From positions 487,936 to 551,935 of the forward strand of contig JBAZKH010000001.1 of the NCBI GenBank assembly GCA_041650935.1: DNA of 64,000 nucleotides, given 5' to 3'. The stretch comes from Candidatus Omnitrophota bacterium (GTDB taxonomy: Bacteria; Omnitrophota; Gorgyraeia; 2-01-FULL-45-10). The notes under the pieces were generated by a model, which made no database searches, was not told the DNA's origin, and was given only the letters and a program-made list of their open reading frames with translations. Made by a program: the position numbers and the translations under genes. Shown here in pieces: positions 3,986 to 48,791 of this stretch (within the stretch, counting starts at the first letter, position 1; every line of letters begins with the position of its first letter).

Positions 3986-5218
3986 TTGTTGGAAAAACTT
4001 TCGCGGAACTTCACATGGCTCGCCGCTACGAACATCGTGAGCAGTCTCTTCGGCACGGTCCTCTTTATATATCTTGCCAGGGTATTGGGGCCGGACTCTT
4101 TCGGATATCTATCTTATGCCCTTACCATAATGTTCTTCCTGGCCAATTTCGTGGACATGGGGCTGTCTACTTACGGCATACGGGAGATAGCAAAGAACCG
4201 GGAGCGTCTTTTCGATTATACCGCGGAGATAGTCTCCTTTCGACTTTTAGCGGCGAGCCTTTTTTTCTTCCTGCTGGTGGCTGCGACGCTGCTCTCCCCG
4301 TATTCGGCTATTCTTAAAAGCGTTATCATCCTGACATCCCTTATGTTATTCACGTTTGCCCTGGGCACAGAATGGGCCTTCCAGGGCGTGGAGAAGATGG
4401 GGATGGTCTTCCTGTCATTTGCCGTCGCTTCCGTCCTTCAACTGGGGCTCACGTATCTATTTGTCAAAAAACCAGGGGATTTGCTGCGGGCTCCCGTTAT
4501 ATATTTTGTATCCACGCTTCCGATCCTGTTTATTTACCTCAGGATCCTCAGGTTCAGGATACTGCTCAAAATCGACGATCTGAAGAAGATGTTTTCGTAC
4601 CTGTCGAGTTCGCTCGTTATATGGTCGATATCTATATTTGCGCAGGTCTATAACGGGCTCGATATATTTATCGTGGGCCTGTTCCGCCCGATACAGGAGG
4701 TCGGATATTTTACGATTGCCCGCAGGGTGGTAGGGGCATTCATACTATTTATGGTATTTTTGACGAACGCGGTTTTGCCGCGCCTCTCGCATACCTTTAA
4801 CGGCGATCCGGCGCTTTTCCGGGAAACGACGCGCAGGTTTTTAAAGCTGGGAGCTGTCCTTACCGTCTTCGTACTTCTGCCGGGCATCTTTATATGCGAA
4901 AAGGTTGTGCTATTCGCGGTAGGGAGCGAATACGTATCCGCGGTCGTCCCGCTCAATATCATGATAGTCGGTCTCGTATTTGTGCTATTCAACCTTCCGT
5001 ACTCCACGGGCCTGATAGCATGCGGCATGGAGAAAGACGTGATGATACAGACCGCGGCAAGCGCTGTGCTCAGCTTATTATTAAACTTTATAATTATTCC
5101 AAAATATGGTATTATTGGAGCTTCGGTATCGTTTACTATTGTCGAGATATTCGCTTTCGTGTGGATATTCTGGATATATGAAACGAAGATCCAGCACGCC
5201 TGGCGGCGCGGCAGTTGA
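3986..5218 (+). CDS. Wzx-like oligosaccharide flippase / polysaccharide biosynthesis protein (MOP superfamily)
   Basis: ~12 predicted TM helices. N-terminal ..LARVLGP..FG.. motif characteristic of Wzx/PST-family transporters. TTG start as annotated in the ORF track. Confidence 0.65.
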   Translation: MLEKLSRNFTWLAATNIVSSLFGTVLFIYLARVLGPDSFGYLSYALTIMFFLANFVDMGLSTYGIREIAKNRERLFDYTAEIVSFRLLAASLFFFLLVAATLLSPYSAILKSVIILTSLMLFTFALGTEWAFQGVEKMGMVFLSFAVASVLQLGLTYLFVKKPGDLLRAPVIYFVSTLPILFIYLRILRFRILLKIDDLKKMFSYLSSSLVIWSISIFAQVYNGLDIFIVGLFRPIQEVGYFTIARRVVGAFILFMVFLTNAVLPRLSHTFNGDPALFRETTRRFLKLGAVLTVFVLLPGIFICEKVVLFAVGSEYVSAVVPLNIMIVGLVFVLFNLPYSTGLIACGMEKDVMIQTAASAVLSLLLNFIIIPKYGIIGASVSFTIVEIFAFVWIFWIYETKIQHAWRRGS

Positions 5219-5240
5219 AAAATAAACAAGGAGAGGGAAG

Positions 5241-9452: not shown

Positions 9453-9553
9453 TGGCTAAACTCTTACTTCAAGTCGTTAAGATTAAATAGGAAAAAGTCA
9501 GCTATTTAGCTTGACTCTTATCCCTGGTATGGTTTACAGTAGTTAACATATAT

Positions 9554-38500: not shown

Positions 38501-40162
38501 ATGGATTTAGTTTCGCTTCAGGAAGACCTTCATCTCAAAGAATATATAGATGTTATAAAGCGCAGGCGCGATACAGCTATCCTGTTCTTCGCAACTGTTG
38601 TTTTGGTAGTTACTATCGGCAGTTTTCTTATGCGTCCTGTCTACCGCGCCACAGCCACGCTCCTTATAGATCCCGAAAGTCCTAATGTCCTTACTACGAC
38701 CGGTATGGTCGAGATGCAGTCTCAGGATTACCTTGCGTATAAAGAATATTTTCAAAGCCAGGTCCACATAATAACATCATATGGCTTGGCTAAGAAAGCG
38801 TTTGATGACCTGGAACTGGGGAAGATGAGAAAATATGCCAGGGCAAGAGAGCCTATTAAGAAATTTTTGAAGACTATCGATGTTGAACCTGTCCGCGATA
38901 CGCGCCTCCTGAATCTAAGTGTCAGGGACAGGGACCCTGAGCTTGCCGCTAAAATAGCAAACCGAATGGCAGAGTTGTATGTAATGCGCAACCTCTACTA
39001 TATAAGCAAGAGCGAGATACTTAATCTTTTGAAGAACGAATATTTAAAACTTGAATCGCGGGAGACAGAGCTCGCGAAAGTTTACAAAGACGCGCATCCG
39101 GAGATGGTTAAAGTAAAGAATGAGATGTCGGATATCCTGGGCCGGATAGACCGCGAAAAAAAATCCATATATGATTATGACGATATCGAGCAATATCTTA
39201 AACGAGGCTCTCAGCATGAATTGTCGGGCTTTAAAGCTAACAATATAAGTATTCAGGATCCGGCCCAGAAACCGGTTTTTCCTATAAAGCCTAAAAAAAT
39301 ACTTAATATTTTCCTCTCCATCATAGTAGGGTTTTTTGGGGGGATTGGGCTTGTTTTCTTCCTGGAGTATATCGATGACAGCGCGAAGACGGTGGAAGAC
39401 GTCGCGGGCGTTATGAAATGGCCGTTCCTGATCAGCGTGCCGGATATGGGGGATGAGGGAGAGGCCAAGGCTATCGAAAAAGACCTATTAGTCAATTCCA
39501 AGCCCAAAGATCCGATATCGGAAGTGTACCGGTCATTGCGTACACGGATATTCTTTTCTTCTACAGAGGAACACCCTTTGCGCGGCATTATGATAACCAG
39601 CCCCGGGCCGCAGGAAGGGAAGACCATAACATTGTGCAACCTGGGCATCGCTATTTCCCAGATTGGGAAAAAGACGCTTTTGGTTGATGCGGATATGCGA
39701 AAACCGCGCCTGCATAACGTTTTTAAAAGAGAGAATAATGTCGGCCTGAGCAATTATCTTTCCGGGCAATGTTCGTTTGACGAAGCAGTGCAGAAGACGG
39801 GCATCGAAAATTTATCCATAGTCAGCGGCGGGATCCTTCCGCCGAACCCGTCCGAACTCCTGTCCAGCCATAAGATGATGGAGTTTATCGCGAAAGCCAA
39901 AGAAGGCTTTGATAGTATCCTGTTAGATACCCCGCCTATAGGCATAGTTACCGATGCCGCGATACTTTCAAAGGCCGTAGACGGCACTATTATGATAGTG
40001 CAGAGCGGCAAGACTTCCAAGAAGGTTCTAGCTCACATATATCATCTGCTTGTAGATGCTCAGGCGAGAATTATCGGAATAGCGCTGAATAGGGTATCGT
40101 TAACGAGCAAGGATTACTATTATTACGCATACTACCAGACGGCTGAACCAAAAACCAGATAA
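38501..40162 (+). CDS. Wzc-like polysaccharide co-polymerase / BY-tyrosine autokinase (PCP-2a)
   Basis: Wzz-like N-terminus with two TMs. Walker A ..SPGPQEGKTITLCNLG.. and Walker B ..LLVDADMRKP... C-terminal Tyr cluster ..KDYYYYAYYQ.. Confidence 0.9.
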   Translation: MDLVSLQEDLHLKEYIDVIKRRRDTAILFFATVVLVVTIGSFLMRPVYRATATLLIDPESPNVLTTTGMVEMQSQDYLAYKEYFQSQVHIITSYGLAKKAFDDLELGKMRKYARAREPIKKFLKTIDVEPVRDTRLLNLSVRDRDPELAAKIANRMAELYVMRNLYYISKSEILNLLKNEYLKLESRETELAKVYKDAHPEMVKVKNEMSDILGRIDREKKSIYDYDDIEQYLKRGSQHELSGFKANNISIQDPAQKPVFPIKPKKILNIFLSIIVGFFGGIGLVFFLEYIDDSAKTVEDVAGVMKWPFLISVPDMGDEGEAKAIEKDLLVNSKPKDPISEVYRSLRTRIFFSSTEEHPLRGIMITSPGPQEGKTITLCNLGIAISQIGKKTLLVDADMRKPRLHNVFKRENNVGLSNYLSGQCSFDEAVQKTGIENLSIVSGGILPPNPSELLSSHKMMEFIAKAKEGFDSILLDTPPIGIVTDAAILSKAVDGTIMIVQSGKTSKKVLAHIYHLLVDAQARIIGIALNRVSLTSKDYYYYAYYQTAEPKTR

Positions 40163-40241
40163 GAGTCGCCAATAAAGCCGCCGAACCAGCCTGTTTTAAG
40201 AATCCAAAAATCAATTGTGCGCGGGCGGGGAGACTTTAAGA

Positions 40242-40379
40242 TTGAAAAGTAACCTAAAGTTTTTTCTTTTACTTGCAGTTTTAATTCTTATATCGATATC
40301 CATGATAGGCTGTGTATCGATCCCGATCCCAAGCTCGATCCCGATCCCGAATTTCCCGCTAATAGGAGCGTTCCTGTAA
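40242..40379 (+). CDS. possible small lipoprotein (45 aa, TTG start) with an IPIPSSIPIPNFP tail
   Basis: Hydrophobic leader ending ..SMIGC. Weak SD. Overlaps an antisense ORF in the track. Confidence 0.2.
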   Translation: MKSNLKFFLLLAVLILISISMIGCVSIPIPSSIPIPNFPLIGAFL

Positions 40380-40564
40380 ACTCCATATAGACCAATCCCT
40401 ATAAACTTATCCATAATTCGCCTCATGGTTAACGTCCTATAATATATCTTATGTCACCTACAGGTATGGGAGAATATAGATATATATAATTGAATGCCAA
40501 TGAGTTATGGAAAATGTGGAAAAGCCTGTTGATAACTACGATTCCGCGGGTCCGCGGGCTTCCC

Positions 40565-40586
40565 TAGCCGACATTTAAACGTCGCC
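40565..40586 (+). repeat. degenerate copy of the 9413..9438 hairpin (TAGCCGACATTTAAACGTCGCC)
   Basis: 18 of 22 positions shared with 9413..9438. The stem is imperfect. Confidence 0.35.
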
Positions 40587-40649
40587 TCAGAGTATATACC
40601 AGGTGTTTTAGGGGCTTGTAGGGCTCTTTCCGGCGGTTTTTTTGGGGTA

Positions 40650-41657
40650 CTATTTGAGCTCGGATAGATACGGCAGAAGATTGTATTTCTTTAGCTTGTT
40701 ATAGAGGGTAGTTCTATTAACGCCTAATCTGGTAGCGGCCTTCTTCTTGTTTCCCCCTACTTCTTTCAGGACGTTCAGGATATAGACTTTTTCAGGTTCC
40801 TGCATGACATCTTTGAGGGATTTTAGTATATTGGCGGGTGCTGTGCTATCATGTAGTTTGCAGCGGGTCATTTTGACCGCCTCCAGGAGCATCTCTGGAA
40901 GATCGTCTTTATCTATTACGTCATCGGTATCGAGGATTACCGCGCGTTCGATTATATTTTCCAGCTCCCGTATGTTGCCCGGCCAGTTGTAGTCTATGAG
41001 TATTTGCCGCGTCTCCTCCGTAATTCCCCTTATTTTTTTCGAATTCTCTTTCGAATAAAGGTTCACGAAATGGTCCAGGAGGTGCGCTAAATCTTCTTTA
41101 TGTTCCCTGAGAGACGGCAGTTTGATAGATATTACATTGAGCCTGTAATAAAGGTCTTCCCTGAACCTTTTTTCGGCAACAGCCTTTTCGAGGTCCTGGT
41201 TGGTAGAAGCTACTATGCGGACGTCTACCTTAATGGTCTTGTGGTCGCCGACACGCTCGAACTCTTTCTCCTGCAGGACCCTTAAAAGCTTTACCTGCAT
41301 GTCCATCGAAAATGAATCTATATCATCGAGCAGGATCGTTCCGTTATCGCCCAGTTCGAAACGGCCCTTACGATCGCCTATGGCTCCGGTAAATGATCCT
41401 TTTGTGTGGCCGAATAGTTCGCTTTCGATTATCTCTTTTGGGAGCGCGCCGCAGGATATCTCTATGAAGGGTTTGTTTTTTCTTTTTTTATCGGCGTGAT
41501 GTATGGCGCGCGCGACCATTCTCTTGCCGGTCCCGCTTTCGCCTCTTAATAGGATCGTGGCTTTCGAATCGGATATGCGCTCGATCATGGAATACATGTT
41601 CTTCATGATAGAACTGCGGCCTACCAAGCCGTGATATGTTTGGGTAGAATTTGTCAT
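40650..41657 (-). CDS. sigma54-dependent transcriptional activator. AAA+ sigma54-interaction domain plus C-terminal Fis-type HTH only, with no receiver or sensor domain
   Basis: Walker A ..GESGTGKRMVARAIH... GAFTGA-type loop ..ESELFGHTKGSFTGA... Walker B ..GTILLDDID... C-terminal HTH ..AATRLGVNRTTLYNKL.. Confidence 0.9.
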   Translation of the reverse strand: MTNSTQTYHGLVGRSSIMKNMYSMIERISDSKATILLRGESGTGKRMVARAIHHADKKRKNKPFIEISCGALPKEIIESELFGHTKGSFTGAIGDRKGRFELGDNGTILLDDIDSFSMDMQVKLLRVLQEKEFERVGDHKTIKVDVRIVASTNQDLEKAVAEKRFREDLYYRLNVISIKLPSLREHKEDLAHLLDHFVNLYSKENSKKIRGITEETRQILIDYNWPGNIRELENIIERAVILDTDDVIDKDDLPEMLLEAVKMTRCKLHDSTAPANILKSLKDVMQEPEKVYILNVLKEVGGNKKKAATRLGVNRTTLYNKLKKYNLLPYLSELK

Positions 41658-41685
41658 ATATGTATGTATTTAGTCCAGGGTTTAA

Positions 41686-41713
41686 TTATAGATTATTAAT
41701 AGGAAAAGTCAAT
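41686..41713 (-). promoter_or_regulatory. near-consensus sigma70 promoter TTGACT-N16-TATAAT reading towards 41657
   Basis: Reverse complement of 41686..41713 is TTGACTTTTCCTATTAATAATCTATAAT. Confidence 0.5.
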
Positions 41714-41760
41714 ATAAAAAACTGGCTTTTTGCAACCTTACAACTAACGAAACGAAAACG

Positions 41761-41786
41761 TATGGAGGGTCTAAACCTTCCATATT
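41761..41786. repeat. palindrome-family copy TATGGAGGGT-CTAAA-CCTTCCATA in the gap between the PocR-GAF and AAA+ ORFs
   Basis: Imperfect stem with a T-rich run on the minus strand. Terminator-like for 41799..42845. Confidence 0.5.
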
Positions 41787-41798
41787 GTTTGCGGAAAT

Positions 41799-42845
41799 CT
41801 ATTTATTGGAGTGGTGACTCAGGGGGAGTAACGCGATCCCTGTCAGTCTTACGAGCTCTTTTACGATATCGATATCTTTTTCGGTGAAATCTGTCTTATT
41901 GCGGACCACGTTGAGGTTGATAACGCCATAAACCTCGTGAGTGTTTGCTTTCGAAAAGGGTATGACCATGGAAGACCGTATATAATTCCTGTTTAATTTG
42001 CCGGAAAGTTCGGCTGAGTCCTTATCCTTGGGCAGGATGATAGGGGTGGCGGTCTTGGCGGCCACACCGGCTACCCCCTCCCCCATCTTTACACCGCTCG
42101 AGCGGTCTATTATGCTCTTATCGAGTTCGGCGGCGACTTTTATCTTCAATATCCGGGTATTTTTGTCCATTATCATTACAGAGCCGGAGTCTGCATTGAG
42201 CGCGAGCACACACGAATGGAGGAGCGATTTCAGTATCTTCTCTTCGTAATAAGAGGAGAAGAGCGGATCCACCTTCACGACCTCAGGCGCTATCTCGCCC
42301 AGACGTTTCTTGTGGTAACCGGCTTGTGCCATATGCGTGAATGTGTCGTTTATAAGAGCGATTACCGAGCGGGCTTTGCCATATGAGAATACATTTATAT
42401 CCATAATGGCATTTGCAAGTTCTTCGGGTTTGATGCCGGGATCATTAAGCTCTACGGCGCACTGGAGCGCTTTTCCCCTGGATTTAAGCATGACGGGCCC
42501 GGCTATTATGTAGGCTACTATCCTGTGGCTGACGGCCCTGATGGGAATAGCGAATGAGCTGAGCCCAAGAGAACATTTTAGAGCCTGTTCTATGTCTATC
42601 GATTGATTGAGGTTGGCTATACCGGATGCCGTTGTTATGCAGTTGCGGCAGGCGGTTTTAGACTTCTGCGTTCTGGGCAGTATCTCCGCACAGAGCCGCG
42701 TAGAGCGGCTGGGCGCAGTCAATAGCTCGCCATGAGCGCTTATGGTCTTGAGAGTGATTTCGAGGACATTTGCGAATGAATCCTGGATACCCTGCCACTC
42801 TCCGAGATTTACTATCTCCCCGAGTTGAAATTCTTTTTTAAACAT
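41799..42845 (-). CDS. PocR sensory domain plus GAF domain protein (sensor half of a split sigma54 activator)
   Basis: PocR-like Cys pattern (..RLCAEIL......CRNC.. / ..LKCSLGLSSFAIPI..). GAF-like ..MIMDKNTRILKIKVAAEL... Same reading frame as 40650..41657. Confidence 0.65.
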   Translation of the reverse strand: MFKKEFQLGEIVNLGEWQGIQDSFANVLEITLKTISAHGELLTAPSRSTRLCAEILPRTQKSKTACRNCITTASGIANLNQSIDIEQALKCSLGLSSFAIPIRAVSHRIVAYIIAGPVMLKSRGKALQCAVELNDPGIKPEELANAIMDINVFSYGKARSVIALINDTFTHMAQAGYHKKRLGEIAPEVVKVDPLFSSYYEEKILKSLLHSCVLALNADSGSVMIMDKNTRILKIKVAAELDKSIIDRSSGVKMGEGVAGVAAKTATPIILPKDKDSAELSGKLNRNYIRSSMVIPFSKANTHEVYGVINLNVVRNKTDFTEKDIDIVKELVRLTGIALLPLSHHSNK

Positions 42846-42862
42846 ATATTATATATGTAGTA

Positions 42863-43732
42863 TTATTTCTTTCCCGATAACTTATCTATGTGCCGCTGTA
42901 AAAGTTTTTTCAGTTTCGGGTCACGAACTTTTTCCATCACATTTTTATATATAGCTATAACTCTTTCAGGGCTCTTCAACTTTTCGATGAAAATCGGTTC
43001 AAGATACGGCAGGAGCCTTCTAAACGTCATAGAGCCGGGGTATCTGTTTAATGTATGCTCGATCGCGCGGCCGGCCGCCTCATAATGTTTCGAATTCATA
43101 TTAGTTTGGATGAGCAGCAGCGCCGCGGCGTAGCCTAACCGCTTACCCGAATGCTCCTTTTCCATCTTTTCATAAAATGCCGCCGCATCCGCGTAAGCTT
43201 TATCTACCGCGGCAGTCTCCCCTTTCGTCTCATAGTGCTTTACGATATATAGAGGGGCCTCCATGCCGAGCTGGGTATAGGGGTACCGGTCTCTCAGCGC
43301 TATAAATTCCGCGAAAGCCTTATCCCATTTCCCCATCCTCTCATAGGTAAGGGCTTTTAAAAACTGGGCCGTGCTCATGACGGCCGCGTTCTCCTTGTAT
43401 TCCGTCATTATGGACTTTATGAGGGACTGCGCCTCGCCGTATTTTTTGTTGGAGATATAGAATTCCGCCAGTGTGATAGCGGCCGTCTTCGTTACGGCCG
43501 CATCCGGATATTTCTTTATAAGCGTCAGCAGGTCCTTTTCGACAGCGGCAAGCAGGCGCGGAGGCGTTACATCAGGGTTCCTCGCTATGACGGAGTTTAA
43601 TTTCATGGCGCGGTAGATGAGCTTTTCCGCGGCGTAATCTTTACCGGGAGAGAATGAAGATACTAAAGAAAACGCCGCCCAGACGACGATCAGTATCAGT
43701 ACCATGTATAGGATTATCTTTTTCATCTTCAT
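42863..43732 (-). CDS. N-terminally anchored TPR-repeat protein (PrsT/YbgF-like)
   Basis: One TM. Multiple 34-aa helical repeats with the W/LG/Y/A/F/A/P pattern. Confidence 0.55.
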   Translation of the reverse strand: MKMKKIILYMVLILIVVWAAFSLVSSFSPGKDYAAEKLIYRAMKLNSVIARNPDVTPPRLLAAVEKDLLTLIKKYPDAAVTKTAAITLAEFYISNKKYGEAQSLIKSIMTEYKENAAVMSTAQFLKALTYERMGKWDKAFAEFIALRDRYPYTQLGMEAPLYIVKHYETKGETAAVDKAYADAAAFYEKMEKEHSGKRLGYAAALLLIQTNMNSKHYEAAGRAIEHTLNRYPGSMTFRRLLPYLEPIFIEKLKSPERVIAIYKNVMEKVRDPKLKKLLQRHIDKLSGKK

Positions 43733-43757
43733 TTCCGGTGCCTCGGCAGGCTCGGCA

Positions 43758-44636
43758 TTAACCCTGAGCTTTTGTCGAAGGTTGATGGTCCAGGAGCCAT
43801 TTAGATACGCATATAATTACGAAACAATCCAGGAATACGGTGACTATTACGCCAAGGAGTGTTGTGCACAGGGTAATCTCCGGGAAGGTTTTGCCGGCGA
43901 GTTCCGCCGAGAAACTCTTCAATAGTATGATCGGCAGGTAAGCGGCGAGCGGTAAAAAGATCAGGTTGAAGATGACGGCAAAATTACGGAATCCCAAACG
44001 CACGCTTTTAAAAATAGCTTTTACCAGGCGCGTTTTTTCTATGACTATGACGGGCACGGTCAGTATCAGCAGTGCCTGTATGATGACGGTCGTTAATAAG
44101 ATAAAGATGGTGAGTGATATGCTATAGACCTGCTGTGGTATCTGAGGGAGTATCTTTGTCGTGATATGAAGCGCCTTTGCAAAGATGAACATATCTATCT
44201 TCTGCAGGAGCGTTGTGACAATGACCATTACCAGCGCGTATGCAGCCAGGGACGGATAGGTCTTAACGGTGTTTTTCAATATCGCGTCTCTTTTGACCGG
44301 AAGATGCGCCTTTATATTCTTGAATATATTGACAGATGTGGCTGTTAACGCTATCCCGATAAGTATATAAATCGCCGTCTGCGCGAAATAAAATAATCCG
44401 GGCAAAGTTATCAGGTTGGCCGGATAATGAAGGAACGCCTCTCCGAAGAATTTTTTGATAATGGGCCCGGCTATTATCGAAAATGGCCATCTGGCCGAGA
44501 AGAAGATGATCTCCAGCGATAACGTCTCAAGGAATGCTATGACGATGAACGGCAGTAAGACCACCGGGTTCCTGGCGATGGTGTTAAATGAATCGGCCCA
44601 ATTTTTTCGTATATTATATTTTTTCATAATTAGCAA
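43758..44636 (-). CDS. hypothetical polytopic membrane protein
   Basis: ~8 hydrophobic helices. No motif recognised. Confidence 0.4.
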   Translation of the reverse strand: MLIMKKYNIRKNWADSFNTIARNPVVLLPFIVIAFLETLSLEIIFFSARWPFSIIAGPIIKKFFGEAFLHYPANLITLPGLFYFAQTAIYILIGIALTATSVNIFKNIKAHLPVKRDAILKNTVKTYPSLAAYALVMVIVTTLLQKIDMFIFAKALHITTKILPQIPQQVYSISLTIFILLTTVIIQALLILTVPVIVIEKTRLVKAIFKSVRLGFRNFAVIFNLIFLPLAAYLPIILLKSFSAELAGKTFPEITLCTTLLGVIVTVFLDCFVIICVSKWLLDHQPSTKAQG

Positions 44637-44848
44637 ATCATTTTATCAGCAATATGAAAAATGTAAAGAAAAAAGGGGTAAAACAATTTGCTTTACCCCT
44701 TTTTATAAAATATCATTATATTTGCCAAGCCTTTTATAATATGAGTCCGGTGGGAGAACATAAAACTTTTAAGGCTCTATGCTCTCACCACATAAGCATG
44801 CTTACTGGTTCAAGCAAAGCCCATGCCGTTTTTGTAAAACGACAAAGG

Positions 44849-45493
44849 CTATGCTTTGAACTTTTTGATGATTGTCCTGCCTGCCATTCCAACCAGACCA
44901 AGACCTAATAGAGCCATACTTGCCGGCTCTGGCGCTGGTCCAGGAAGGGACTCGTTCTGACTGGTGCCGCCTGCTGTTATGTTGCCACTTACCCATGTTG
45001 GCGACTCAAGAGCGGTAAACCATAGAACATAGCTTGTGCTGCCTCCTGGGATAGCGTTGGCTCCGCTAAAATCCCAATAGGCGCAATTTAAGCCCGTACC
45101 GTAATACCCGTTAATCGGGGCGACTGTGCCAGACAAGTCGTAGGTTGTAGTAAACAAGTCGTCGAGGTTGAATGAGTTAGTGAAGGCTCCGTCTGTAATA
45201 TGGCCGCCGTTCTCATTCAAAACCCCAAACATAGTAAGCGCCTGGTCATTGGATAAACCGTCGACGTTCTTTATCTGATAAAGATACGTATAGTCGGTCT
45301 TTGTCCCGAGCGGATTGGTGGCATTACCTGGTTCATAGACAGCCCACCAGACATCCGCGTTAAAATACCGCGTTGTCCCTATGTATTTCTGGAAGTTTGT
45401 GCAACCATCGATTAACGGTGTTGCTTCAGCGTTTAACGTCGTAACGACGCATGCCGCGAAGAGCACCATTACAATTAATGCAATTTTCTTCAT
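44849..45493 (-). CDS. PEP-CTERM sorting-domain secreted protein
   Basis: Signal peptide. C-terminal ..PAPEPASMALLGLGLVGMAGRTIIKKFKA (PEP motif, TM, basic tail). Confidence 0.8.
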   Translation of the reverse strand: MKKIALIVMVLFAACVVTTLNAEATPLIDGCTNFQKYIGTTRYFNADVWWAVYEPGNATNPLGTKTDYTYLYQIKNVDGLSNDQALTMFGVLNENGGHITDGAFTNSFNLDDLFTTTYDLSGTVAPINGYYGTGLNCAYWDFSGANAIPGGSTSYVLWFTALESPTWVSGNITAGGTSQNESLPGPAPEPASMALLGLGLVGMAGRTIIKKFKA

Positions 45494-45513
45494 TTATTCA
45501 CCCCCTTCCTTTG

Positions 45514-45570
45514 TAGACTGTAGACCATAGACCTTTAATGCTTTGGTCTTCGGTCTCTGGTCTTCGGTCT
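45514..45570. repeat. GGTCT/TAGAC-word low-complexity repeat block (TAGACTGTAGACCATAGACC ... GGTCTTCGGTCTCTGGTCTTCGGTCT) between the two PEP-CTERM genes
   Basis: Read directly. A related motif recurs at 60565..60600 inside a CDS. Confidence 0.6.
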
Positions 45571-46162
45571 ATTTTATACCTTTCTTTCTTCTGAAACCTG
45601 CTAAGCCTGTGATTCCCAATCCCAAAAGCGAAAGAGTCGCGGGTTCCGGAGTAGCGTATTCGACTATGTATCCCTGGTAGTATTTACTGCCGGCCGGAGA
45701 ACCTGTGCCGTAAATGGAATTGCTCGAATTGCCGCTTAAGTCATTCCACTTTCCATTGGTCCAGAACTGGATGTTATCATCGATGTATCCGAAGGAGGAA
45801 TTATCGTTGGGCTCTCCGCCGTTCCAATTGTCCCAAGACCATGTTTCTCCGGTAACCCAACCCCAGCCGCCTGACGGTTCGGCTCCATTTGGATCCTGTA
45901 TGGCACCCAGCCAATAGTATGATGGGTTGCCGAGGTTTGACCAAACCCAGTCATTCTCTGCCTGGCTTGTAAGGACCGCCAAATATCCGTTTGCGCCGCC
46001 ATACGAAAGAGCTTCAGCGTTGGCCTTCGCGACATTCCAGTCGTATGTACCGCTGATAGCTTCGTAATAGTGCCCTGTCAAAGGACAATATATAGGCGAA
46101 GCGAAAACAGCACCGCAAGAGGATAAAAGTAATATTATTGCAATAAGGCCTGCCTTCCGCAT
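45569..46162 (-). CDS. C-type-lectin-fold domain protein with a PEP-CTERM anchor
   Basis: Signal peptide. CTLD-like ..YLAVLTSQAENDWV......YYWLGA.D......W.WV.GE.WS.DNW..GEPND... C-terminal ..TPEPATLSLLGLGITGLAGFRRKKG. Confidence 0.65.
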   Translation of the reverse strand: MRKAGLIAIILLLSSCGAVFASPIYCPLTGHYYEAISGTYDWNVAKANAEALSYGGANGYLAVLTSQAENDWVWSNLGNPSYYWLGAIQDPNGAEPSGGWGWVTGETWSWDNWNGGEPNDNSSFGYIDDNIQFWTNGKWNDLSGNSSNSIYGTGSPAGSKYYQGYIVEYATPEPATLSLLGLGITGLAGFRRKKGIK

Positions 46163-46189
46163 TTTTATAGCCTCCTTTTCATATTTTTC

Positions 46190-47068
46190 CTACCTGGCGC
46201 CTCTTCCCTGAAATGAGACGACTATGGTACGTAATAGTATCCTTACATCCACCATGAGACACATCTCCCTTATATATAGGAGGTCGTACTTGACCTTCTT
46301 CTTAACATCCTGGATAGTTTCATCGTATTTATGCCATACCTGAGCGAGGCCTGTTATACCGGGCTTTACTTCCAGCCGCCTGCGATAATCCGGTATCTTT
46401 TCGCTCAACTGTTCAACGAATACCGGCCTTTCAGGCCGCGGTCCGACTATACTCATCTCGCCTTTCAAAACATTAAATAACTGAGGCAGTTCGTCCAAAT
46501 GAAGCTTCCTGATCACAGACCCATGCTTTATGAGACGCGAATCATTCTCTTTTGCCCATACGGGGCCGGTAAGTTTTTCAGCGTCCAGCCTCATAGTCCG
46601 CATCTTATAGATATTGAACATATTCCCCTTCCACCCTACCCTCTCCTGGCTGAATATTACGGGCCCGGGTGAAACGATTTTAATATAGATAGCGGTCAAG
46701 GCCATTACGGGAGAAGCTATGACAATTCCGATCGATGCTACGAGGATATCGAATATCCGTTTAAATTCGGTAAAGCGCTTACGCGCGAATCTGACGATAC
46801 AGCCGAATATTCCGGTCGATACTAGCGCCACAGTGCCCGGCTCCGGGGCCGACACAGGGATTACCTTGCCTGTCTGGGCATAGCCGAAACCGATGAAGAC
46901 AAGCGAAAGGAACGCTACGAAAGCAAGGATCGTCGAATAATTCAAAAGCTTTTTAGCTTCGTCTTTTTTGGGAACAGCGCGCGCATATCGCTGGATGGCA
47001 AGATATATATCGAGATCCTTTTTTATCTCGCCTAGCGTCATCACGAATGTCCGGATGAATTTTTTCAT
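46190..47068 (-). CDS. bacterial sugar transferase (polyprenyl-phosphate glycosyl-1-phosphate transferase). Exosortase-system-associated type
   Basis: ..FKRIFDILVASIGIVIASPVMAL....SPGPVIFSQERVGWKG..F..YKMRTM......DSR....G..IRK.HLDELPQLFNVLKGEMSIVGPRP. Confidence 0.9.
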   Translation of the reverse strand: MKKFIRTFVMTLGEIKKDLDIYLAIQRYARAVPKKDEAKKLLNYSTILAFVAFLSLVFIGFGYAQTGKVIPVSAPEPGTVALVSTGIFGCIVRFARKRFTEFKRIFDILVASIGIVIASPVMALTAIYIKIVSPGPVIFSQERVGWKGNMFNIYKMRTMRLDAEKLTGPVWAKENDSRLIKHGSVIRKLHLDELPQLFNVLKGEMSIVGPRPERPVFVEQLSEKIPDYRRRLEVKPGITGLAQVWHKYDETIQDVKKKVKYDLLYIREMCLMVDVRILLRTIVVSFQGRGAR

Positions 47069-47188
47069 ATACTTCTATATAAGCATCATTCGTGCCAAGT
47101 CATGAGCGCGAGCAAAAATATTTTATTTTTTGATGATTATAAATATTTGTGAATCAATGGGTTACGGCTGGATATTTTTGCTAATTAG

Positions 47189-47217
47189 TGACAATTCATG
47201 ACAAACTATGACAGTCA
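47189..47217. promoter_or_regulatory. three TGACA direct repeats with exact 10-bp phasing (TGACAattcaTGACAaactaTGACAgtca) upstream of the sugar-transferase/PEP-CTERM operon
   Basis: Read directly. Lies ~120-150 bp upstream of the start at 47068. Confidence 0.4.
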
Positions 47218-47308
47218 TTGATAGGTGTTTCGGAAAAAATGGACATTAATAAGCGGTGTGTTGAGATGGGTGAACATGAGACATTGGGCAGGTTTTGCTG
47301 AAGCATGG

Positions 47309-47332
47309 TAGGGCAGGTTTCAACCTGCCCTA
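47309..47332. repeat. palindrome-family copy TAGGGCAGGTT-TC-AACCTGCCCTA overlapping the EpsI stop codon
   Basis: Perfect 11-bp stem. A partial GGGCAGGTTTT copy sits at 47286. Confidence 0.6.
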
Positions 47333-47965
47333 TATTGTCATGGAGTCGACTATCTTTACAGTTTCGCTGAGAAAAGATTTCAGCATCGCAAGCGCCTGCT
47401 TCTCGTCGCTTCTTATCGGTATCGCGACGCGGATCGTAGCGCCCGGAACGCGCTTGCCGAATATCTGATGGATGGCGAGATATGCCTGTTGCAGATAAAA
47501 ATTGCTGGTATACAATTTTCCGGCCTTGTATGCATAGAGCACTAGCTCCTTAAAATCGCCCTTTTCAGCCAGCATCTTGTTTGCCGAAAATTTATACTTT
47601 CCGGATTCGATATTCTCATTCTGTTTGTCCACTATAGCAAAGCCGCCTCCTGCTATACAGACTTCGGGCGGATGGAATACAGATCTATTAGTCTCGGAAT
47701 ATATAATAAATAAACTTAATTTATCGTTTGACTGGTTGACGTATTCGCGAGCGATCAAGTTCCTTGTCTCAAGGATTTGATATTCTTTTTCCGTTATCTC
47801 TAAGTCCGTTCCTTTCCACTTCCCTATCGTGTGCGGAAAACTATGTATGTCGGTCGTGTCGCGCATAGTCTTCTCCTGCGAAAATAACCGAAGGGAAAAG
47901 AAACTCGCCGCTAATAAAAGGACGACCAGCAACATGTAGCCTAAAATGTTTTTATCTGACTTCAT
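47330..47965 (-). CDS. EpsI-family exosortase-associated periplasmic protein
   Basis: N-terminal TM. ..IGKWKG.D.......L...N...R.Y.......L.IIYS.......HPPEVCIAGGGF.. matching the EpsI signature. The start is chosen at MKSDKN, so the ORF-track start at 48082 is likely an over-extension. Confidence 0.7.
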   Translation of the reverse strand: MKSDKNILGYMLLVVLLLAASFFSLRLFSQEKTMRDTTDIHSFPHTIGKWKGTDLEITEKEYQILETRNLIAREYVNQSNDKLSLFIIYSETNRSVFHPPEVCIAGGGFAIVDKQNENIESGKYKFSANKMLAEKGDFKELVLYAYKAGKLYTSNFYLQQAYLAIHQIFGKRVPGATIRVAIPIRSDEKQALAMLKSFLSETVKIVDSMTI

Positions 47966-48791
47966 TTTTTGTTTCCAATACTCTTGATACGGCGAATAGC
48001 CCCACAAAAGCGAATGCAAAGACCAGGAAACCGGTAAAGTCGTGGAATAACCCCATCGCGACTTTTCCCCCATATAGGTCATTTACCACAGCGACCATGA
48101 CGATCCTCGTGACATTTGCCGCGAGCGCTATGGGAACGGATGATAGGAATAGTATCGATTTCCTAACGTAGGAAATTTTCATCGAATACGCGAAGAGCAG
48201 GCCGAGGGTCAAGAGCGATATGAGCGAACGCAGTCCACTGCACGGGGCGGCGACCTCGATATGCGAATTCGGCATCCTTATGATACTGCCGTCTTGTATC
48301 GACGGAAATCCGATCCTGTTTAATATAAAAGTAGAAGCCTGCGCCGCTATCAATTTTAATTTTACCGTCAGGTTCCCTATCAATACGAGCGGTAATGGCA
48401 CCATGGCAAGAAGAAAAAATACCGGAAATGTCAGGCTGCGTACCATCTCTTTCCCGAAGAAAAAGAGAATAAGCCCGTATAAAACCAGTATGAACGAGAA
48501 ACCGGATACGAAATAGACTTTAAGCGCGGCGGATACGATATGGATCAGGAGCCCGAGAGCCACGATCCACAGCCCTGCGAGTGTCCCGGATATCGTTATC
48601 TTTTTCAGCGCCTCCCTTCTCTGCCAGACAATGAATAAGGAGATGATGGGGATAAGGAACCCATGTCCATAGTATGATTCGGCCGCCATCCACCTGTCGA
48701 CCATCCATCGCAGGGTCGGAAGGTACGCGATAAATAAAAGTGCGGCGCATGACGCGAATTTCAAAATGGCGTTTCGTTTAGAATTCATCAT
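47952..48791 (-). CDS. exosortase (EpsH/Xrt family)
   Basis: 8 TM helices. Motifs ..YGHGFLIP.., ..VAAPCSGLRSL.. and ..ANVTRIV.. (catalytic Cys/Arg/Asn triad regions). Confidence 0.9.
   Translation of the reverse strand: MMNSKRNAILKFASCAALLFIAYLPTLRWMVDRWMAAESYYGHGFLIPIISLFIVWQRREALKKITISGTLAGLWIVALGLLIHIVSAALKVYFVSGFSFILVLYGLILFFFGKEMVRSLTFPVFFLLAMVPLPLVLIGNLTVKLKLIAAQASTFILNRIGFPSIQDGSIIRMPNSHIEVAAPCSGLRSLISLLTLGLLFAYSMKISYVRKSILFLSSVPIALAANVTRIVMVAVVNDLYGGKVAMGLFHDFTGFLVFAFAFVGLFAVSRVLETKNEVR

Follow-up and report, generated by a model that had tools for sequence, protein, structure and literature searches.

Stand-alone PocR-GAF sensor and receiverless sigma-54 activator as a putative trans-acting pair at an Omnitrophota exosortase/PEP-CTERM locus

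A stretch of 64,000 nt from a Candidatus Omnitrophota bacterium (assembly GCA_041650935.1, contig JBAZKH010000001.1, positions 487,936 to 551,935; hereafter the window) carries on its minus strand two adjacent genes, A and B, which encode a PocR-GAF sensor lacking an output domain and a sigma-54 enhancer-binding protein reduced to its AAA+ and helix-turn-helix (HTH) domains. The best explanation for this arrangement, to which a probability of about 0.6 is assigned as a whole, is that A and B form a naturally separate and ancient sensor/activator pair of an exosortase/PEP-CTERM exopolysaccharide locus, with A acting in trans. The evolutionary part of this explanation, in which the activator was once a response regulator, the PocR-GAF protein was always a separate third component and the window represents a reduced and reordered end state, is held with high confidence, and the mechanistic part, in which A would gate B in trans by analogy with known systems, is considered only slightly better than an even bet. 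An earlier note on this DNA had offered two readings of the pair, namely an ancestral gene split by an inserted element or a natural pair of proteins interacting in trans. The deep conservation of the gene pairing favors the second; the gene split fails, which leaves a finding less dramatic than the one first proposed.

The sensor/activator gene pair and its relatives

Gene A (41799-42845, minus strand; 348 aa) starts 17 nt after the stop codon of a tetratricopeptide repeat (TPR) gene and encodes a PocR domain, a long connecting helix and a GAF domain. Pfam places PocR (PF10114) at residues 10-177 (E 2.4e-22, 79.9 bits against a cutoff of 23.9) and GAF at residues 202-339 (E 1.6e-10; GAF_2 41.7 bits against a cutoff of 28.6), and no NCBIfam family matches the protein. 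An AlphaFold2 model (mean predicted local distance difference test score, pLDDT, 81.5) has PocR in a PAS-like fold and, joined to it by two long helices (residues 155-192 and 194-215), the GAF domain. Its best structural matches are tandem-GAF regulatory segments, lone GAF domains and that of the activator Nlh2 (4g3v). The linking helices hold the most conserved motif of the family, GYHKKRLGEIAPEV..DPLF.RYYEEKIL. The PocR-like cysteine pattern pointed out in the earlier note is present in A (C52, CxxC at 66-69 and C91), but it is not conserved: only about one orthologue in two has these residues, an entire subclade is devoid of them and no PocR-domain cysteine is invariant. Any metal or cluster binding by A is therefore not family-wide.

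Gene B (40650-41657, minus strand; 335 aa) encodes a Sigma54_activat domain (PF00158, residues 11-178, E 2.6e-68, 229 bits against a cutoff of 20.2) followed by AAA_lid_14 and a Fis-type HTH_8 domain (residues 289-325, 54 bits). Ten residues precede the AAA+ domain, and neither Pfam nor NCBIfam finds a domain N-terminal to it or a match to the receiver family PF00072. The coordinates given earlier for both open reading frames (ORFs) proved exact, and the Pfam matches bear out the domain content then read from the letters, PocR plus GAF for A and, for B, a receiverless AAA+ domain with a GAFTGA-type loop plus a Fis HTH. The sigma-54 contact loop of B reads GSFTGA; across 124 orthologues the F of this loop is conserved in 123 and the T in all, with S (47) or A (77) at the second position. 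The Walker A motif (GESGTGK) and the FREDLYYRLNV region are intact and, like the loop, invariant or nearly so across the B clade. Walker B (residues 108-115) is LLDDID, with DD rather than DE, as it is in 122 of the 124 clade members, including those that have a receiver (REC) domain, and the outgroup activators of two distant loci (L028 and L029; L numbers denote relatives' loci) have FLDEID. As a side observation, the combination of a DD Walker B with degenerate receivers in the Omnitrophota clade may indicate an atypical ATPase or regulatory cycle.

Homologues of A were sought in two collections. A search of 5.8 billion proteins returned 208 clusters, the best 120 of which are all stand-alone PocR-GAF proteins of 327-362 aa with 48-80% identity and with C-termini that coincide with the end of A itself. 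An exhaustive HMMER search of 1.84 billion representatives returned 1371 relatives; the best 150 are mostly stand-alone, at about 330-355 aa, besides fragments of shorter length and a minority of longer proteins with several domains. Ten of these long proteins were checked: HD-GYP, GGDEF or histidine-kinase domains are present in nine, and the tenth has GAF domains only. No fusion to a sigma-54 AAA+ domain occurs among these ten or among the best 120 of the 208 clusters, and the search for fused PocR-GAF-AAA-HTH orthologues, which the earlier note had suggested as a check of its gene-split reading, thus produced none.

The two genes are separate neighbors in the relatives as well. In 22 Omnitrophota loci (L001-L023 except L014) they lie on one strand in the order MEM, TPR, X, B, A, where MEM encodes a conserved membrane protein and X is a small ORF described below; L014 has just a C-terminal fragment of B upstream of A. 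The MEM-TPR order is kept in 16 related loci. The gap between B and A measures -20 to 42 nt in 18 of the 22 loci, the exceptions being L003 and L007, which are probable frameshifted assemblies, and L008 and L019 (130-153 nt). The 153-nt gap of L008 (L008:6848-7000) holds a GC-rich palindromic sequence resembling a miniature inverted-repeat transposable element (GCGAAGCAATCTCTGAGATTGCTTCG...), and L012 and L017 have a similar element after gene A. That relatives always encode two proteins is the outcome which the earlier note had itself named as speaking against a split gene. The order found in the window recurs in L027 (GCA_028712245), where TPR, A, a 99-nt spacer and B (333 aa) are followed past B by convergent Wzc/Wza/porin/FecR genes, as in the window. 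The A-then-B order with a B that lacks REC is restricted to these two genomes, and is a derived state.

The pairing reaches well beyond these close relatives. Four distant loci contain a stand-alone PocR-GAF protein at 25-33% identity with the upstream gene visible, and in three of them (L028, L029/L030 and L032) the PocR-GAF gene directly follows one for a REC-AAA+-HTH activator. The two are 5 nt apart in L028 (33% identity), in which rpoN is convergent downstream. L029/L030 (26%) encodes an exosortase, EpsI, a PAS-HisKA-HATPase kinase, the activator and the PocR-GAF protein, with overlapping stop and start codons, and L032 (25%) a GAF-PAS kinase, the activator and the PocR-GAF protein, followed by Wza/GNVR/tyrosine-kinase-type genes. 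In L033 the contig holds only the C-terminus of an activator, which overlaps the start of the PocR-GAF gene. Judged from these sequences, the activator/PocR-GAF pairing is much older than the Omnitrophota main clade and has been kept down to 25% identity. In L032, strong sigma-54 -24/-12 sites (L032:848-863 and 5209-5224) are found ahead of the kinase-activator-PocR-GAF operon as well as ahead of the adjacent Wza-type export genes, suggesting possible autoregulation plus control of polysaccharide export.

The receiver that B lacks is the rule among its orthologues. Those of the related loci have 456-483 aa and an N-terminal Response_reg domain, and REC is present in 17 of the 19 loci in which the 5' end of B is visible. 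Among the top 120 homologues of B, only the window and L027 proteins (mutual identity 87%) are without REC at about 335 aa; the others show 66-76% identity, are nearly all 438-513 aa long and almost all match PF00072, with two further short entries without REC of 359 and 371 aa. The start of B corresponds to the linker between REC and AAA+. A neighbor-joining tree built from the AAA+-HTH region pairs the window protein with that of L027 in 60 of 60 bootstraps and places the two among proteins with REC, and a second pair without it (L019/L022; 370-371 aa, B-then-A order, X absent) forms a separate clade, so that the receiver was lost at least twice. Tandem or dispersed short repeats occupy the place of X and REC in this second pair (L022:2055-2200, with three copies of about 47 nt, and L019:4150-4556), which hints at repeat-mediated deletion or replacement. 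By comparison with an NtrC reference sequence, REC, where retained in Omnitrophota, has a degraded acidic pocket and a deletion of two residues past the phospho-accepting Asp. L009 and L016 have another residue instead of this Asp, and the Lys is often replaced by Arg.

A parallel decay is apparent in the kinase. X (L001:5300-5580) is a small conserved ORF of 70-110 aa between the TPR and activator genes, found also in L003-L005, L007-L012, L015, L016, L018, L020 and L023 and absent from the window. It has the motif PIDxxNRFINLAL...QGRQFLLESK and no significant match in Pfam, NCBIfam or, by sequence, PDB. In a profile comparison by hhalign, X matches the DHp (H-box) region of the L029 kinase (probability 97%, E 3.9e-11), with Asn, Glu or Ser in place of the phospho-accepting His; the kinase motif AHELNNPL reads I-N/E/S-ELYSPI in X. 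By this alignment X looks like a stand-alone DHp protein without its His, a pseudo-kinase remnant that has been kept as a gene. The window locus has no kinase, and no remnant of REC, of X or of a second copy of A was detected in the window or the A-B spacer beyond shared linker residues.

The A-B spacer and the competing explanations

The spacer between the two genes (41658-41798, minus strand; 141 nt) is a promoter region that aligns with the 99-nt spacer of L027. As stated in the earlier note, the TAG of A (41801-41799) and the ATG of B (41657) are 144 nt, or 48 codons, apart and share a frame; its count of four in-frame stops in the gap holds if the TAG of A is included, three being inside the gap. 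The genes are in one frame in L027 too (102 nt), and the two cases together amount to a coincidence of about 1 in 9. The sigma-70-type promoter predicted for B (41685-41731, minus strand) consists of a AAAAAGCCAG element, 9 nt, TTGACT, 16 nt and TATAAT. The hexamers, which the earlier note had recognized with coordinates off by one (41686-41713), lie at 41712-41685, agree with the consensus at 11 of 12 positions and are the best match of the region. AAAAAGCCAG lies upstream of the -35 hexamer at a fixed distance, and 27 nt separate the -10 hexamer from the ATG of B. L027 has the same two hexamers, also 16 nt apart. Identity between the two genomes is 72% over the 72 promoter-proximal columns of the spacer alignment, compared with 55-57% for the fourfold-degenerate sites of the flanking genes, and the indels of this alignment measure 39 and 3 nt.

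This promoter belongs to a recurrent type. The window contains two copies of the composite motif AAAAAGNNAG-N9/10-TTGNNN-N15-18-TANNNT, where chance would give 0, and the motif stands directly after the TPR stop codon in L001, L003, L004, L007 and L012 and, in a looser form, after TPR in L015, L016 and L023. This post-TPR promoter of the relatives drives X-B-A. In the form AAAAAGNNAG-N9/10-TTGACx-N15-18-TAnnnT the motif is also seen at unrelated genes (window 9492-9540, plus strand, and L023:8080-8127), and it is found downstream of gene A in L015, which suggests that Omnitrophota have an upstream promoter element typical of their lineage. The -10 element of this architecture is in several cases of the extended TGnTAAAAT type, and the leaders that follow them are very short, with no obvious Shine-Dalgarno sequence.

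Upstream of the promoter is a hairpin, which had been described as a member of a palindrome family at 41761-41786. A hairpin does exist there (41761-41784, minus strand; 10-bp arms with one mismatch, then a T-rich tract), but it is weak (dG, the folding free energy, -12.3 kcal/mol; z -1.9; 4 of 200 shuffles fold as well) and has no family, being unique in the window even when up to 3 mismatches are allowed. It lies inside the 39-nt alignment gap and is absent from L027, the closest relative; it may serve as a partial terminator after gene A. An Rfam scan of 40000-48000 gave chance-level matches only.

Several points weigh against A and B being a trans-acting pair with the history given above. 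The case for A contacting B rests on conserved adjacency as read from sequence, and A could be either an inhibitor or a co-activator of B. PocR-GAF modules elsewhere are wired to cyclic di-GMP (c-di-GMP) or kinase outputs, so A might signal elsewhere. One distant stand-alone PocR-GAF gene (L031) has no visible adjoining activator, on a contig that ends 260 nt upstream of it, and rpoN is not within the 64-kb window. The clade-wide Asp in place of the Walker B Glu may make the ATPase behavior of B atypical. As to the history, the path by which A was rearranged left no detectable trace in the window or the spacer, and homology of the spacer promoter with the ancestral operon promoter is plausible rather than proven, because the architecture is generic for these genomes.

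Some of these points are shared by an alternative in which A and B are merely co-located, B having become constitutive or otherwise controlled after the loss of REC, and A signaling elsewhere, to MEM and TPR or to c-di-GMP enzymes. The HD-GYP, GGDEF and kinase outputs of other PocR-GAF proteins fit such a scheme, as does the probable transcription of A with MEM and TPR, apart from B. It is nonetheless considered unlikely, since the two genes, whose stop and start codons often overlap, are adjacent in homologues ranging from 80% to 25% identity and in differing neighborhoods, and since neither two independent losses of REC nor a change of order has separated them.

A second possibility, that B is a decaying remnant inactivated by the deletion of REC and the DE-to-DD change in Walker B, at a locus heading for loss, can draw on the absence of the regulatory domain and of the partner gene X and on the non-canonical Walker B. 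However, DD is the normal state of the clade, in proteins with REC as well, all other AAA+ and HTH motifs are invariant and the promoter is conserved. Both genes are intact and under purifying selection, with ratios of nonsynonymous to synonymous substitution (dN/dS) against L027 of 0.12 for A and 0.08 for B at a dS of about 1.0-1.2 (about 1.2 in the case of B), and decay of B is accordingly very improbable.

The shared frame could also be a relic of a fusion, in which domain shuffling put PocR-GAF in the place of REC in the common ancestor of the window and L027, the fusion later being split as a promoter arose in the linker. Both spacers keep the frame and the 39- and 3-nt indels are multiples of three. 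Yet such a history calls for the de novo origin of a full promoter, with its lineage-typical upstream element, inside coding sequence, whereas the spacer promoter resembles the pre-existing post-TPR promoter; the spacer has three in-frame stops and no coding signal, and no fused form exists among the homologues examined, which makes this course of events highly improbable too. Least credible of all is the split of an ancestral PocR-GAF-AAA+-HTH gene by a 144-bp element bringing its own promoter, for although the A-then-B domain order mimics a sensor-activator fusion, the frame is common to the window and L027 and the window spacer contains a hairpin, there is no fused orthologue among the homologues of A and B examined, relatives have the opposite gene order and REC on B, A ends at the natural C-terminus of its family and B begins at the REC-AAA+ linker, the spacer is unique rather than a repeat element, its promoter but not its hairpin is shared with L027, and the frame is a roughly 1-in-9 coincidence.

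The surrounding locus and the probable target promoter

Upstream of A are the genes for the TPR protein (42863-43732, minus strand; TPR Pfam matches), a conserved upstream partner of the regulator genes with a PrsT-like role, and for MEM (43758-44636, minus strand; start probably at the ATG at 44627), a conserved multi-pass membrane protein with no family match. A promoter-like TTTACA-N16-TAAAAT read from the sequence just upstream of MEM (44640-44667, minus strand) probably drives MEM-TPR-A. It is preceded, between MEM and a PEP-CTERM gene, by a terminator-like 17-bp hairpin followed by a T run (44670-44704, minus strand).

Beyond this hairpin lies a probable sigma-54-dependent operon (44849-47068, minus strand; Pfam Bac_transf, Lectin_C and PEP-CTERM). 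It begins with a priming sugar transferase gene (46190-47068), followed by genes for a PEP-CTERM protein with a C-type lectin domain (45569-46162; PF00059, E 1e-6), which is an unusual exosortase cargo, and a further PEP-CTERM protein (44849-45493), all on the minus strand. Upstream of the operon are the genes for an EpsI-family protein (47330-48082, minus strand; Pfam DUF3485) and the exosortase (47952-48791, minus strand; NCBIfam 8TM_EpsH, 169.8 against a cutoff of 105.55).

A canonical sigma-54 -24/-12 promoter, TGGCACGAATGATGCTTAT (47079-47097, minus strand), precedes the sugar-transferase ORF by 29 nt. Its exact pattern, TGGCA-N7-TGCTTAT, has this single match in the window and occurs once each, at the equivalent position, in L001, L004, L011, L018 and L023. 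Roughly 110 nt upstream of the -24 element is a putative upstream activating sequence (47186-47220, minus strand), composed of an ATGACnGTCAT palindrome and TGTCAT repeats phased at about 10 bp, and a conserved TAAC..TT.ATT box resembling an integration host factor (IHF) site lies between the repeats and the promoter. The columns of the palindrome, the repeats and the IHF-like box are invariant across six loci (alignment A3). The predicted enhancer, DNA-bending site and -24/-12 promoter have the classical layout of such a control region. B is the sole enhancer-binding protein within the window, and the promoter at 47079-47097 is its likely target.

Other candidate sigma-54 sites were discarded. 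A loose scan (TGGCAC-N5-TTGC, up to 2 mismatches) gave no more matches than chance, and several apparent sites in relatives fall inside the signal-peptide coding sequence of PEP-CTERM genes. Also, CGGCATGGGCTTTGCT (44813-44828), considered as a sigma-54 promoter upstream of MEM, is part of a conserved structured element instead. This noncoding element of about 65 nt (window 44750-44816, minus strand) is located just after the PEP-CTERM protein gene, as a single copy in the window and with no Rfam match, and it recurs in L001 (3289-3355), L002, L004, L005, L008, L011, L015, L016 and L023. Its two hairpins are a short one (GCTTGAACC...GCATGC) and one of 16 bp, five pairs of which show compensatory changes across 10 loci, and the element is a candidate structured RNA of exosortase loci, either a 3' untranslated region, a leader or a small RNA.

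On the other side of the pair, B and the Wzc gene converge on a 487-nt region that is partly conserved in L027 (72% identity over 288 nt) and contains, downstream of the Wzc-like gene, a small ORF (40215-40379, plus strand) encoding a lipoprotein-like signal peptide, LLLAVLILISISMIGC.

Proposed mechanism and comparison with known systems

The following history and mechanism are proposed for the pair. The ancestral state would be that of the relatives, with a histidine kinase, a REC-AAA+-HTH activator and a PocR-GAF protein encoded in one tightly packed operon. In most Omnitrophota the kinase would have decayed to X, retaining dimerization helices but no phospho-accepting His, and REC would have become degenerate. 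In the lineage of the window and L027, X and REC would have been deleted, placing the operon promoter directly before the AAA+ domain, and gene A would have moved between TPR and that promoter; these two changes make the simplest history. At present, B would be made from its own sigma-70 promoter, bind the TGTCAT repeats and activate the sigma-54 promoter of the glycosyltransferase/PEP-CTERM operon, and A, presumably the only sensory input left in this lineage, would bind a small ligand through PocR and/or GAF and gate the oligomerization or ATPase of B in trans. The analogy with PspA-PspF, NifL-NifA and cis-acting GAF domains makes inhibition relieved by a signal the most likely effect of A on B; the case for regulation in trans draws on the conserved pairing together with these analogies and that of HrpV-HrpS.

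Sigma-54 activators are a textbook case of modular signal input, and only a few of them (PspF, HrpS and NifA) are known to be under trans control. A conserved activator/PocR-GAF pair, linked to exosortases and maintained over 25-80% identity, would introduce a trans-acting, ligand-sensing partner of a new type. The window lineage amounts to a natural deletion experiment, from which receiver and kinase are gone and PocR-GAF is left, and because only PocR-GAF remains, the trans hypothesis can be tested directly with two small proteins and one defined promoter. More generally, stand-alone PocR-GAF proteins could be a widespread and hitherto undescribed class of trans partners for NtrC-family activators at exosortase/PEP-CTERM loci, which within Omnitrophota progressively replaced the phosphorelay, the kinase being reduced to a DHp without its His, the receiver degenerating and both being lost at least twice, with the window as the minimal end state. 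This broader view is put forward tentatively, at somewhat less than even odds. Trans-controlled activators without a regulatory domain and sigma-54 regulators of PEP-CTERM loci are already known; neither curated families nor the searchable literature yielded the PocR-GAF partner, the deep pairing, the DHp remnant without its His or the repeated loss of the receiver, and that literature contained no relevant report of a PocR-GAF partner of enhancer-binding proteins. The locus also extends the regulatory picture of PEP-CTERM/exosortase systems beyond Proteobacteria, a matter left open explicitly by Haft et al. 2006 (PMC1569441).

Among the nearest known systems is that of Prs. In Proteobacteria, a sigma-54 site and an upstream motif were described before PEP-CTERM genes, together with PrsK/PrsR/PrsT (Haft et al. 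2006, PMC1569441). As in Prs (TIGR02916/02915/02917), the window has an NtrC-family activator gene and a TPR gene beside exosortase, EpsI, glycosyltransferase and PEP-CTERM genes, and a -24/-12 site with an upstream motif precedes its PEP-CTERM operon. In contrast, PrsK is missing, relatives having a His-less DHp remnant or a short PAS kinase (368 aa; 77 bits against the TIGR02916 cutoff of 300), and the PocR-GAF protein is an extra constant partner at these loci. B also differs from PrsR in having no N-terminal receiver and in scoring 327.8 bits against the TIGR02915 cutoff of 502.6, its orthologues with REC reaching 356-368 and distant ones 418-444 bits. Assignment of B and its orthologues to the PrsR, AtoC, NtrC or PspF equivalog was rejected, as all fall under the NCBIfam cutoffs.

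In architecture B resembles PspF and HrpS, consisting only of AAA+ and HTH with no cis regulatory domain and being transcribed from a predicted sigma-70-type promoter. By analogy with PspF-PspA and HrpS-HrpV, its presumed regulator is encoded separately. B differs from PspF in its score (255 bits against the TIGR02974 cutoff of 443.55), in descending from ancestors that had REC, and in its neighbor, which is a PocR-GAF ligand sensor rather than a coiled-coil PspA/IM30 partner.

NifL, a sensor with PAS-like domains encoded by an adjacent gene, controls NifA by protein-protein contact and not by phosphotransfer, and is a kinase-like protein that no longer phosphorylates. This lost kinase activity is echoed by the decay of the kinase to X in Omnitrophota, although A has no sequence relationship to NifL beyond the PAS-like and GAF folds, and the GAF domain that NifA carries itself is here on the partner. 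In NorR, FhlA, NifA and Aquifex Nlh2, an N-terminal GAF domain represses or controls the sigma-54 AAA+ domain in cis. Unlike in these activators, GAF resides with PocR on a separate polypeptide throughout the sampled A family.

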